64,000 bases of DNA from a virus, in IMG/VR virus record IMGVR_UViG_3300024999_000057, positions 1 through 64,000 of that record; one strand, given 5' to 3'. Below the pieces are notes generated by a model. It was not told the origin of the DNA and made no database searches. It saw only the letters and a program-made list of their open reading frames with translations. Within the stretch, counting starts at the first letter, position 1; each line of letters opens with the position of its first letter. This document shows, piece by piece, positions 6,004 to 9,064 of the stretch. The translations under genes and the position numbers were made by a program.

Positions 6004-6442
6004 CATCGCACGCTGCGCTCTCTGCGGCGACATCATCGAGTCCACCTACAGGCACCACTTTGTTTCGTGCAAGTGTGGCGAGATCAGCTTGGATGGTGGG
6101 ACAGATTATTGTAGAGGCGTAGGTAATCTGGAGAATTTCAAAAGGCTTACTGAGGAGGAACTTGCTGCCTGGGATTCGGTGACTACAGGGAGGTTGGAGG
6201 ATTGGACTTATGCTGGTGGGATTATTTACGGGACCATCTACGACGACAAGCTGAAGAGGTTCTTCGATGGAACTGAAATATCAACTTCTCCGGTGGTCTC
6301 TCCAGCGAAGGACCGTAAAGAGGGCAAGGTGATCCAGACCCGAGGTAGCACTTACCTTCTTGGTAAGAAGTTTGTTCAGAAGAAGGATTGGACTGCCGAG
6401 GTTGCTGAGGAAGCGGCTGAGGTTGGGGTTGGTGTGGTTTAG
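5990..6442 (+). CDS. Zinc-ribbon domain protein fused to a second small phage domain
   Basis: CALCGDIIES..RHHFVSCKCG..SLDGG; C-terminal GTIYDD..RFFDG..ISTS..TRGSTYLL. Confidence 0.75.
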   Translation: MKSRNIARCALCGDIIESTYRHHFVSCKCGEISLDGGTDYCRGVGNLENFKRLTEEELAAWDSVTTGRLEDWTYAGGIIYGTIYDDKLKRFFDGTEISTSPVVSPAKDRKEGKVIQTRGSTYLLGKKFVQKKDWTAEVAEEAAEVGVGVV

Positions 6443-6551
6443 GCGGAAGCGGGGGTTCAGAGTGTGTCGGTTAGCTGATGACAGGACGGCTTTACGTTCA
6501 GGTCTATAGGTGGGTTATGCCCGTCGCAACTTCTTTGGAAAGGAAAATCAA

Positions 6552-6842
6552 ATGAACATTAGAAAACATATGGAAATGCTGGGGCTGAAAGTTGAGGACA
6601 AAGTTACCGGATTCAAGGGCGTTGTCACATCTGTCAGCTTTGACCTGTATGGCTGCGTTCAAACAATCGTCAATCCAGGTGTGGGGGAAGACAAGAAGCC
6701 GGGTGACTCTCTCTGGTTCGACATTGGCCGGTTGAAGGTACTAGGATCTACGCCTGTCATGGATGTGCCTAATTTCGAGTATGGCGCAATAGCTGAAGGC
6801 AAAAAAGGCCCAGCAGAGAAGCCGATGTTTATGAAAGCATAA
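6552..6842 (+). CDS. Hypothetical SH3-like phage protein
   Basis: LGLKVEDKVTGFKGVV...WFDIGRL; ATG 6552 after AAGGA. Confidence 0.75.
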   Translation: MNIRKHMEMLGLKVEDKVTGFKGVVTSVSFDLYGCVQTIVNPGVGEDKKPGDSLWFDIGRLKVLGSTPVMDVPNFEYGAIAEGKKGPAEKPMFMKA

Positions 6843-6895
6843 CACGAATATGCCAGACGCAAGCGCTGTAGGTTCGATCCCTACCCTATAAAAAT

Positions 6896-6929
6896 GAAAG
6901 CCCTTGGGTTCTCCCAAGGGCCTTCTTTT
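6896..6929. terminator. Intrinsic terminator between convergent early operon and integrase
   Basis: GCCCTTGGG-TTCT-CCCAAGGGC followed by CTTCTTTT. Confidence 0.85.
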
Positions 6930-8166
6930 ATTCAAATTGCTCCCCAAATTTATCAGCATCCTTCCTCTTTTGCTCCCGATCCACGAATGAGTACTTCCTG
7001 CTCATGTTAATATCGCTGTGATCGAGGAAATCTGCGGTCTTCCTGATGTCCTGCGTAGCTTGGTAGTAGAAGGTCCCGGCTGAGTGCTTGGTGTCGTGGA
7101 ATCGCTTGTCTTCGAGCCCTGCTTCCTTTTTGACCTTCTGGAAAATGTTGTCCCAGTAGGATCTGGAGATGGGCACGTCCTTAGTCTCGCCGCAGAAGAG
7201 CCAATGGCTTTCCTGCTCCTTCTTGGTTAGTCCCTCCAGGTAGGAATCCAGCAGGCTCCTAAGCCGAGGGATCATGTCCAAGTAATGCGTGTAGTCGCCC
7301 CGCTTCCTCTTGCTTGCTGGAATGGCTAGAAGGTTTTCTTGGAGGTTCAGGTACTCCTTTTTTAATGAGCAGATGGTTTTCCTTCTGAGCCCTCCGAACG
7401 CCCCAAATCCAATTATTAGTGAAGCCCTTTTATCTACGAACTCCGCAGCCTCAAATAGCCTCGTCAATTCCCCCACCGTGTAAAACTTATCCTCCCTAGA
7501 ATCGTTCTCAGGCCACGCAGAAACCGCTTGAAGCTGATTATATTCCAGGTACCGCGTGTTGTCTGGAGCTACGATTTTGGACTTCACGAAGCAGTTGATC
7601 ATGTTGATGAGGGTTGACCTGGCCCGGTTCACGGTCGAGTTGGAGTGCTTCAGTTCATCCCTGCAGTAGACCATGTAGGACTGGAGGTGCTGAGGCAGGA
7701 GGTCCGCTACATAAACTGGGAGTCGGTCTGCTAACTGGCGAGGGAGGGGCTTGTCTGACTTCCAACTGAAATCTCGGAAGAAGGGGGTCAGGTTGCAGTT
7801 CAACCGCTGGACGTAGAAGGCACGGGTGTCCTCATTGGAGAGGCCTTGGAGGTAGGCGGTGTAAAGCTCTGTGGCGCGATCCCAGGTGAGCTTTTCCTTC
7901 TTCTGGTTCAGCTTGAAGCGATCATCTACGATCTGGCCCAGGACTTGGTTGAGCCGGTCTTCCGCCTGTTTCTTGTGGACGCTGATTTGCTCCGCTATTT
8001 GCTTCCCCTCGAAGGAGTAGGAAATGCTCCAGAATTTATCAGCCTCGTTTGTGGTGCTCCCGCATTTTTTGCAGGGAGGCAGCTTCTTAGGAGGGTCTGC
8101 AAATCGCTTCCTAGCACCACACTCGTAGCAGCGGACCACCTTAAAAATCGAACCTTTTTCGCGCAT
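6928..8166 (-). CDS. int: Tyrosine recombinase (phage integrase) with N-terminal zinc ribbon
   Basis: GLRR (R), FHDTKH (HxxR variant), LDH, SRKY catalytic Tyr; CYECG/CKKCG; start ATG 8166 with RBS AGGAGGG. Confidence 0.92.
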   Translation of the reverse strand: MREKGSIFKVVRCYECGARKRFADPPKKLPPCKKCGSTTNEADKFWSISYSFEGKQIAEQISVHKKQAEDRLNQVLGQIVDDRFKLNQKKEKLTWDRATELYTAYLQGLSNEDTRAFYVQRLNCNLTPFFRDFSWKSDKPLPRQLADRLPVYVADLLPQHLQSYMVYCRDELKHSNSTVNRARSTLINMINCFVKSKIVAPDNTRYLEYNQLQAVSAWPENDSREDKFYTVGELTRLFEAAEFVDKRASLIIGFGAFGGLRRKTICSLKKEYLNLQENLLAIPASKRKRGDYTHYLDMIPRLRSLLDSYLEGLTKKEQESHWLFCGETKDVPISRSYWDNIFQKVKKEAGLEDKRFHDTKHSAGTFYYQATQDIRKTADFLDHSDINMSRKYSFVDREQKRKDADKFGEQFE

Positions 8167-8187
8167 GGGGTTACCCTCCTTGACTGA

Positions 8188-8216
8188 AATATAATTCAGA
8201 CGTGAATGGAAGTCAA
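8188..8216 (-). promoter_or_regulatory. Integrase promoter with operator-like 14-mer in the spacer
   Basis: Minus strand TTGACT-N17-TATATT; ATTCAGACGTGAAT at 8194-8207. Confidence 0.8.
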
Positions 8217-8411
8217 GCCTTGGCTGCAATAATTGAGCAATAATTGAAATTTCCCGAGTGTTCCCTATATCGGTTAAGTGGCTGGATTTGGTACTTTTCT
8301 TAGCTGAGTTAAGTAGTTATCAATTCAGACGTGATTTTAAAAGGATGTGATTTAAGGAAGTCTTTGTAAATCTGTTGGTTAGAGGATTTGAGGCATTTCT
8401 GTTGATAAACC

Positions 8412-8441
8412 AAAGGCCCTCTTGAATCAAGAGGGCCTTTT
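8412..8441. terminator. Bidirectional terminator-like hairpin
   Basis: AAAGGCCCTCTTGA-A-TCAAGAGGGCCTTTT. Confidence 0.8.
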
Positions 8442-8494
8442 GATAACTGATTGATGTTATTACCTAATTTGGCTTTAACAAATAATTCATTTGT

Positions 8495-8533
8495 GAATCA
8501 GAATCCGTTGCCTTACCGCTTGGCGACACCCCT
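8495..8533 (-). tRNA. 5' half fragment of tRNA-Gln(CTG), attP core; not a complete gene
   Basis: Minus strand AGGGGTGTCGCCAAGCGGTAAGGCAACGGATTCTGATTC: acceptor 5' strand, D arm, anticodon loop TT-CTG-AT; similarity stops just after the loop. Confidence 0.9.
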
Positions 8534-8609
8534 ATTTCAACTACTTACGCCGTTTATTTTTCCTTAGCAATGGTCTTGCAATAATTGAATCCGAATTGCT
8601 GCCTAACAA

Positions 8610-8654
8610 AAAATGCCCTGCCTTGCTTCGGTGAGTCGCAAGATAGGGCATTTT
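8610..8654. terminator. Terminator-like hairpin downstream of xis
   Basis: AAAATGCCCT...AGGGCATTTT with internal stem. Confidence 0.65.
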
Positions 8655-8659
8655 GAAAT

Positions 8660-9004
8660 TCATGTCAATATTCTTTTTCGTCTTTTTTTAGGCACAGGGT
8701 CTTGCCTGGATGCCGGGTGAAGTGACTTCAATTCATCCAGGAGGATCACAGGATCAAGCTGCCATCTTCCCCTCGGACCTGTCTTCCAGCCAGTAAGTTC
8801 GCCAAGTTCCAGCTTTCCCTTCAACCAGCGGTCGGACTTGCTTATTTTTAGAGAGGCTTGCTTTAGGCCAATCAGCAGGGGCTCTGGCTTGTTAGGGCTG
8901 AGGGCTTCGATGGCCGCTTGTAGAATTTTTAATGTCGCTGCGTGTACCTCGGCTTGGGCCTGAAGGAGCCCGAGGAGCGCTGCTGGGTCTGCCTGGATCT
9001 GCAC
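8660..9004 (-). CDS. Excisionase-like winged HTH protein
   Basis: LIGLKQASLKISKSDRWLKGKLELGELTGWK..RGRWQL; next to attP; GTG 9004 with GGAGG (start uncertain). Confidence 0.7.
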   Translation of the reverse strand: MQIQADPAALLGLLQAQAEVHAATLKILQAAIEALSPNKPEPLLIGLKQASLKISKSDRWLKGKLELGELTGWKTGPRGRWQLDPVILLDELKSLHPASRQDPVPKKRRKRILT

Positions 9005-9064
9005 TGGAAATGCCCTCCTGCAATAGTCTTGCAATTATTGAACTGGATTTTTAAACGATTACAG

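Follow-up and report, generated by a model that had tools for sequence, protein, structure and literature searches.

The integrase locus

The DNA that we analyzed, called the window here, is the first 64 kb of a linear IMG/VR virus record of 102,669 b, the completeness of which is estimated at 91% by CheckV. A tyrosine integrase gene is preceded on the minus strand by DNA that holds part of a tRNA-Gln gene, two hairpins, and several short repeats, and ahead of these is an ORF in the xis position (Table 1). Small terminase and HNH genes lie further to the right of this ORF.

Table 1. Features at the integrase locus, with positions as counted in the window
Feature	Positions	Strand	Remarks
Tyrosine integrase, 412 aa	6928–8166	-	PF00589, 1.2e-20; phrog_1 integrase, 1.9e-34
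Promoter-like site for int, TTGACT-N17-TATATT	8188–8216	-	From promoter scan; called in relatives too
Tandem pair of the 11-mer GCAATAATTGA	8226–8248		Candidate arm-type integrase sites or regulatory sites
Perfect 14+14 hairpin between tRNA fragment and int	8412–8441	-	Arms 8412–8425 and 8427–8440, 100% complementary
Copy of the palindrome ATTCA-N4-TGAAT	8485–8498		Overlaps last 4 nt of fragment; abuts proposed crossover region
tRNA-Gln(CUG) positions 1–39, identity block of proposed attP core	8495–8533	-	Exact match; conserved in relatives
Anticodon loop TTCTGAT, predicted 7-bp overlap (crossover) region	8497–8503	-	Predicted from anticodon-loop sublocation rule
Candidate phage-borne tRNA promoter and leader	8534–8581	-	-35 TTGCAA at 8581–8576; -10 AATAAA at 8558–8553
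Third exact copy of the 11-mer GCAATAATTGA, other side of core	8578–8588		Kept in L003 with one mismatch; lost in L004–L006
Hairpin then T-run, after upstream ORF	8610–8654	-	Arms 8610–8626 and 8638–8654, 17 nt, 88% complementary
114-aa ORF in the xis position	8660–9004	-	GTG start at 9004; conserved in relatives

The integrase ORF spans 6928–8229 and we read its true start as the ATG at 8166, which has the ribosome-binding site AAGGAGG ahead of it. This is the only PF00589 gene in the whole record. The protein does not have the canonical R-K-H-R-H/W-Y set of catalytic residues because the second arginine, that of HxxR, is absent. In its place is the lysine of HDTKH (residues 357–361), which aligns with HQLRH of the XerC-like protein 4a8e and is invariant in six integrase homologues, down to 49% identity. 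The other catalytic positions (R261, H357, H383, and Y392) do align. A CxxC...CxxC zinc-ribbon-like motif occurs at the N-terminus (approximately residues 13–37) and is absent from two homologues of 355–362 aa (P0006 and P0007). We also considered a protelomerase or telomere resolvase and rejected it: the palindrome at 8412–8440 is imperfect in three related phages (L004–L006), the match to an annotated resolvase covers 53% of the query at just 26% identity, and integrase families give the best matches.

The 114-aa ORF had been labeled xis in the earlier note. No family, sequence, or fold match bears this label out. The ORF has no match in Pfam, PHROG, NCBIfam, or PDB sequences, no Xis, HTH_17, or MerR-type domain is recognizable in it, and an AlphaFold2 model of low confidence (pLDDT 63) gave no Foldseek match. 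It is position alone that suggests an excisionase role.

The 5' half of a tRNA-Gln gene lies upstream of the integrase gene

The minus strand at 8533–8495 is an exact copy of positions 1–39 of a bacterial tRNA-Gln(CUG). It comprises the 5' strand of the acceptor stem, the D arm, the 5' strand of the anticodon stem, and the loop TTCTGAT with the anticodon CTG, followed by TC. The fragment thus ends 2 nt past the anticodon loop, where the sequence diverges into CACAAATGAAT, and no T arm follows, just as the earlier note had read it. It lies upstream of the integrase gene on the same strand, 328 nt from the start codon, and occurs once in the whole record. No complete tRNA was found in the 64-kb window with ARAGORN or in the 102,669-b record with the RF00005 covariance model. 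We rejected a split or intron-containing tRNA because there is no 3' half anywhere in the record.

The 38 bases after position 1 together with the expected CGT match exactly the intact tRNA-Gln(ctg) genes that ARAGORN called on more than 120 metagenome contigs. On the strength of this sequence match, a chance origin of the fragment is excluded. The earlier note had proposed such a comparison as a way to find the host. It did locate intact genes, but the 5' half of tRNA-Gln is common to many phyla, in which it is identical, so the fragment alone does not name a host.

The same truncated fragment is present in related phages

We found four related viral contigs (L003–L006) with integrases 88–97% identical to that of the window. 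All four carry the fragment and in all of them it is truncated at the identical end point; none has a complete tRNA at that position. In the five phages, 36 of the 39 columns of the fragment (92%) are invariant compared with 44–82% in neighboring non-coding segments, which makes it the most conserved non-coding segment of the region, with less constrained flanks. The 17 nt directly past the fragment are 88% invariant in the relatives. Phage DNA flanks the fragment on both sides in all five genomes and synteny continues on either side of int, which indicates that these are unintegrated, attP-state genomes.

These results bear on whether the fragment could be a functionless relic, either of a decayed phage tRNA gene or of host DNA taken up by imprecise excision. 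The former had been raised in the earlier note, with the expectation that the gene would then be complete in relatives; instead, all four have the same truncated copy. That tRNA genes do occur in this phage group, as with a tRNA-Thr gene in the relative G003, fits with a decayed gene. By contrast, neither the identical end point in all five genomes nor a level of conservation above that of every neighboring non-coding segment would be expected of a relic. The tRNA-Thr(TGT) of G003, an 82.5-kb relative, is complete (L140 1498–1573; G003:C1:10052–10124), and the record to which the window belongs is without a tRNA gene.

The window also contains a 450-bp insertion (6442–6891) relative to L004–L006, where 6441 joins 6892 directly. 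The insertion holds a 110-aa ORF (6510–6842) and a T-arm-like sequence, GTAGGTTCGATCCCTAC, on the plus strand (6868–6884). We rejected this sequence as the 3' half of the tRNA because it is on the strand opposite to the fragment and inside an insertion that is missing from relatives. Neither L003 nor L005 conserves the insertion, so it does not belong to the att site.

Searches beyond these relatives returned no integrated form. There was no close relative of the integrase in 185,579 species genomes, no homologue of any window protein when 120 tRNA-Gln contigs were compared with all window ORFs, and no cultured phage relative. In IMG/VR, searches with junction patterns, the 38-mer, and integrase alignment returned just the four attP-state relatives. 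The approach advocated in the earlier note, locating relatives and mapping attL and attR in them, therefore yielded relatives but all of these are in the attP state, and attL and attR as described below are inferred.

Fragment haplotypes match those of tRNA-Gln genes in a candidate host

We examined the tRNA-Gln contigs for a candidate host and recognized a group of nine (L018, L029, L048, L083, L086, L089, L096, L112, and L114). These share the promoter TTGACT-N18-TATTAA, which ends 17 nt ahead of tRNA +1, and a tRNA-Glu gene begins 55–75 nt downstream of tRNA-Gln in each of the nine. ARAGORN identified the downstream gene as tRNA-Glu(ttc) on the three contigs where it was run (L029, L089, and L096). 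The tRNA-Gln(CTG)/tRNA-Glu(TTC) pair, with a single evident promoter, occupies 5908–6112 of L029, 3426–3643 of L096, and 6410–6627 of L089. L096 and L089 have identical flanking gene order and the VorB protein encoded beside the pair on L096 is 87–91% identical to Geomonas and Geobacter proteins. By these protein matches, L096 is assigned to the Geobacteraceae. The nearest integrase homologue that we found in a bacterial genome (P0007) is from Geomonas ferrireducens, with 49% identity, and is encoded on a contig of approximately 1.6 Mb. Another homologue, 89% identical, is encoded by a 6.3-kb contig that binning placed in a groundwater Spirochaetes MAG. The G+C content of the phage, 50%, is by contrast approximately 11 points below that of the candidate hosts, approximately 61%. 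Judged by these sequence relationships, the hosts of the phages are probably Geobacter-family bacteria. On two other contigs (L019 9805–9890 and L091 1306–1365), a tRNA-Gln with a host-type promoter is intact up to and including the variable loop, beyond which the DNA is unrelated. These could be the displaced 5' fragment of another reversed-orientation element with a T-arm sublocation or they could be assembly breaks at contig ends.

Variation among the five phages is confined to three positions of the fragment (1, 32, and 38), which read A/T/T in the window and L003 and T/C/C in L004–L006. Both haplotypes are present in Geobacteraceae-like host contigs with the same type of promoter and the same gene order, and each of the two phage loop variants, TTCTGAT and CTCTGAC, is an exact match to host loops. 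In 112 of the 112 complete host genes that we scored, positions 1 and 72 form a pair and there is covariation between positions 32 and 38. Strand exchange requires that the phage loop equal the host loop. Position 1, by contrast, is 30 nt away and would be of no consequence unless the phage half became fused with the 3' half of a host tRNA. That position 1 changed together with the loop supports the idea that a tRNA is rebuilt from phage and host parts, although this comparison rests on a single evolutionary event. The mirroring of two host tRNA haplotypes by two attP haplotypes is thus indirect evidence that the phage-derived half is used in the tRNA of a lysogen.

The haplotypes also argue against a relic since the changes in the fragment reproduce natural tRNA haplotypes. 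In addition, no host flank accompanies the fragment. The identity block begins at an internal sublocation of the tRNA gene and extends to its 5' end, and the sequence upstream of the block is unrelated to the host upstream sequences that were sampled. Together with the end point and conservation described above, this makes a functionless relic extremely unlikely.

From these data we consider it likely that the region from approximately 8226 to 8609 is the attP of a temperate phage, with its core at 8495–8533, and that the tyrosine integrase targets a host tRNA-Gln(CUG) gene, recombining with its anticodon-loop region in a reversed, 5'-replacing orientation. Several findings weigh against this: the lack of an integrated form among the search results, the lysine at the second catalytic arginine position (although it is invariant across the clade), the weak promoter of the window described below, the G+C difference, and the lack of a recognizable family for the ORF in the xis position.

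Repeats, palindromes, and hairpins surround the core

The 11-mer GCAATAATTGA begins at 8226, 8237, and 8578 in the 64 kb and at 9031 with one mismatch, so that all copies are confined to 8226–9041. Their positions are conserved in the relatives save for the copy at 8578 that is lost in L004–L006. The repeats may serve the integrase as arm-type sites or have a regulatory role; one copy being 500 nt away and another being lost in three relatives leaves room for the latter. On the minus strand at 8596–8586, ATTCGGATTCA matches the anticodon-region sequence ATTCTGATTCA at 10 of 11 bases, and this might be a second core-like site or a chance likeness.

The palindrome ATTCA-N4-TGAAT occurs as 15 perfect copies in the window versus 0.13 expected, at sites that include 8194, 8485, 9710, and 9796. 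The 14-bp copy at 8194–8207 lies within the spacer of the promoter-like site for int. This palindrome is probably the operator of a phage regulator.

Both hairpins described in the earlier note exist and fold in all relatives, and a simple terminator scan called neither of them. The hairpin between the fragment and int (-22 kcal/mol) has a weak T-run and its structure is kept in the relatives with altered sequence. Preservation of the structure despite sequence change is consistent with an insulator that faces the strong host tRNA promoter, and the hairpin is likely an insulator or terminator against read-in from that promoter once the phage is integrated. The hairpin after the upstream ORF ranges from -18 to -26 kcal/mol across the five genomes; as a likely terminator, it would insulate the tRNA promoter against the leftward operon. 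A promoter-like sequence, TTGACA-N17-TATCTT, at 8640–8668 on the minus strand overlaps this second hairpin.

These structures allow for a different reading in which the fragment, a promoter, and the downstream hairpin constitute a small RNA gene of their own, the product of which could be a tRNA-half-like decoy or regulator that has nothing to do with integration. The promoter-like site, the fragment, a 55-nt tail, and the hairpin would make a plausible unit of approximately 135 nt, and folding of 8547–8400 gave a z-score of -4.5. However, this score is owed to the terminator and palindrome hairpins and not to the tRNA part. Rfam returned no meaningful match at the locus. Moreover, the boundaries of the fragment, exactly at tRNA +1 and in the anticodon-stem region, are like those of att identity blocks, and its position 1 tracks host position 72, which is relevant only for a fragment that becomes fused with the 3' half of a host tRNA. 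We therefore regard a small RNA gene as very unlikely.

A candidate promoter for the rebuilt tRNA

[quoted passage not shown] The earlier note had pointed to TTGCTA-N17-TAAGTA at 8570–8542 as a weak promoter. This sequence is present but it matches only 6 of 12 consensus positions, and a better candidate is one helical turn upstream at 8581–8553. The hexamers of this candidate in the window match 8 of 12 positions and were not called by the promoter scan. At the homologous site, three relatives have TTGACA-N18-TAAAAT (as in L005), which matches 11 of 12 positions and has an A-tract ahead of it. The promoter of the relatives ends 18 nt before tRNA +1, compared with 17 nt for the host promoters. 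Between the promoter and the fragment is an invariant 16-nt leader (8549–8534), which ends in GTAGTTGAAAT. By eye the upstream region resembles those of some host tRNA-Gln genes, as if a host promoter had been captured; we rejected this origin since local alignment against all the host upstream sequences that were retrieved was no better than with shuffles.

As an alternative, the attP may be as described but with the site at 8581–8553 idle, in which case tRNA-Gln, once rebuilt, and tRNA-Glu would be transcribed by read-through of the leftward operon on the xis side or from a start elsewhere. The low match of the window hexamers and the lack of a scan call are in keeping with this, and the invariant blocks CGTAAGTAGTTGAAAT and TTGCTAAGG could serve another function or another sigma factor. 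On the other hand, the conserved hairpin and T-run at 8654–8610 lie between the operon and the fragment, and an operon with a putative excision gene should be silent in a lysogen. The promoter matching 11 of 12 positions in three relatives is, moreover, in a host-like register. Weighing these points, we think read-through or another start unlikely. Each of the three alternatives, read-through, a small RNA gene, and a relic, is less likely than a 5'-replacing attP with a phage promoter for the rebuilt tRNA.

In the candidate hosts, no consensus promoter was called between tRNA-Gln and tRNA-Glu. This is weak evidence given that the scan missed the evident host promoter too. Since tRNA-Gln heads a two-tRNA unit in these hosts, the phage promoter would probably need to serve both genes.

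Proposed integration into the host tRNA gene

In the model that we propose, strand exchange would take place in the 7-nt anticodon loop. The attL would then consist of the host promoter, the host 5' half of the tRNA, the phage tail, the palindrome, and the hairpin at 8441–8412, followed by int. At this junction, transcription from the strong host tRNA promoter would be kept out of int by the hairpin. Approximately 100 kb away, attR would consist of the xis-side operon, the terminator at 8654–8610, the phage promoter, and phage tRNA positions 1 to approximately 35, continuing into the host 3' part of tRNA-Gln and then the downstream host tRNA-Glu(UUC). The tRNA-Gln of a lysogen would thus be transcribed from phage DNA, and the tRNA-Glu probably would be too.

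That the prophage controls a host tRNA in this way is speculation. It is also conceivable that the reversed orientation is an adaptation to the place of the target in its operon, such that the rest of the operon is kept contiguous and two host tRNAs come under the phage promoter as a lever, but we find this doubtful and distinctly unlikely. If true, such a lever could, for example, stabilize lysogeny or tune host translation.

Comparison with known elements and significance

According to PMC6563490, which cites Zhao and Williams (2002) among others, tRNA genes recombine considerably less often through their 5'-distal part than through their 3' part. Reversed, 5'-replacing integration into tRNA genes has been reported in bacteria (Zhao and Williams, 2002, J Bacteriol 184:859, as cited in PMC6563490 and PMC1635311) and some Klebsiella islands are described as integrating upstream of arg2 (bioRxiv 10.1101/2020.11.02.365908). 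The configuration rule of Islander likewise allows an intact tRNA at one end with a displaced 5' fragment upstream at the other (PMC4383910). Thus, the arrangement is rare but already published, both for bacteria and for the archaeal elements discussed below, and the novelty implied in the earlier note was overstated. Like the bacterial 5'-replacing elements, the phage carries the 5' part of the tRNA, and the rebuilt gene would be downstream of element DNA and need an element-borne promoter. It differs from them in being a phage of approximately 100 kb in the free attP state, with tRNA-Gln(CUG) as the target and with integration as our inference, and in that the target heads a tRNA-Gln/tRNA-Glu pair in the candidate hosts.

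[quoted passage not shown] The same would apply to the phage. However, in the pTN3-like elements the tRNA is read from the integrase promoter, whereas here int is downstream of the fragment and the rebuilt tRNA, with a separate promoter ahead of it, would lie at the other end of the prophage.

The end of the identity block at the anticodon stem-loop agrees with the anticodon-loop sublocation described for tyrosine integrases that target tRNA genes (Williams, 2002, NAR 30:866, as cited in PMC8371274 and in the Klebsiella preprint, bioRxiv 10.1101/2020.11.02.365908), by which the 7-nt loop would be the overlap region. The block here, however, extends from the loop to the 5' and not the 3' end of the gene. 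This attP also keeps 2 of the 5 nt of the 3' stem strand, which makes the core asymmetric in attP.

The locus offers a clean phage example, in five related genomes, of the rare 5'-replacing integration into tRNA genes. In annotation, the ends of this prophage would be misplaced by island and prophage finders that look for a 3' fragment beside int. The pair of int and attP is also a candidate integration tool for Geobacter-family bacteria. Because the target seemingly heads a two-tRNA unit, the phage and its hosts provide a testable case of a prophage promoter sustaining the expression of host tRNAs.
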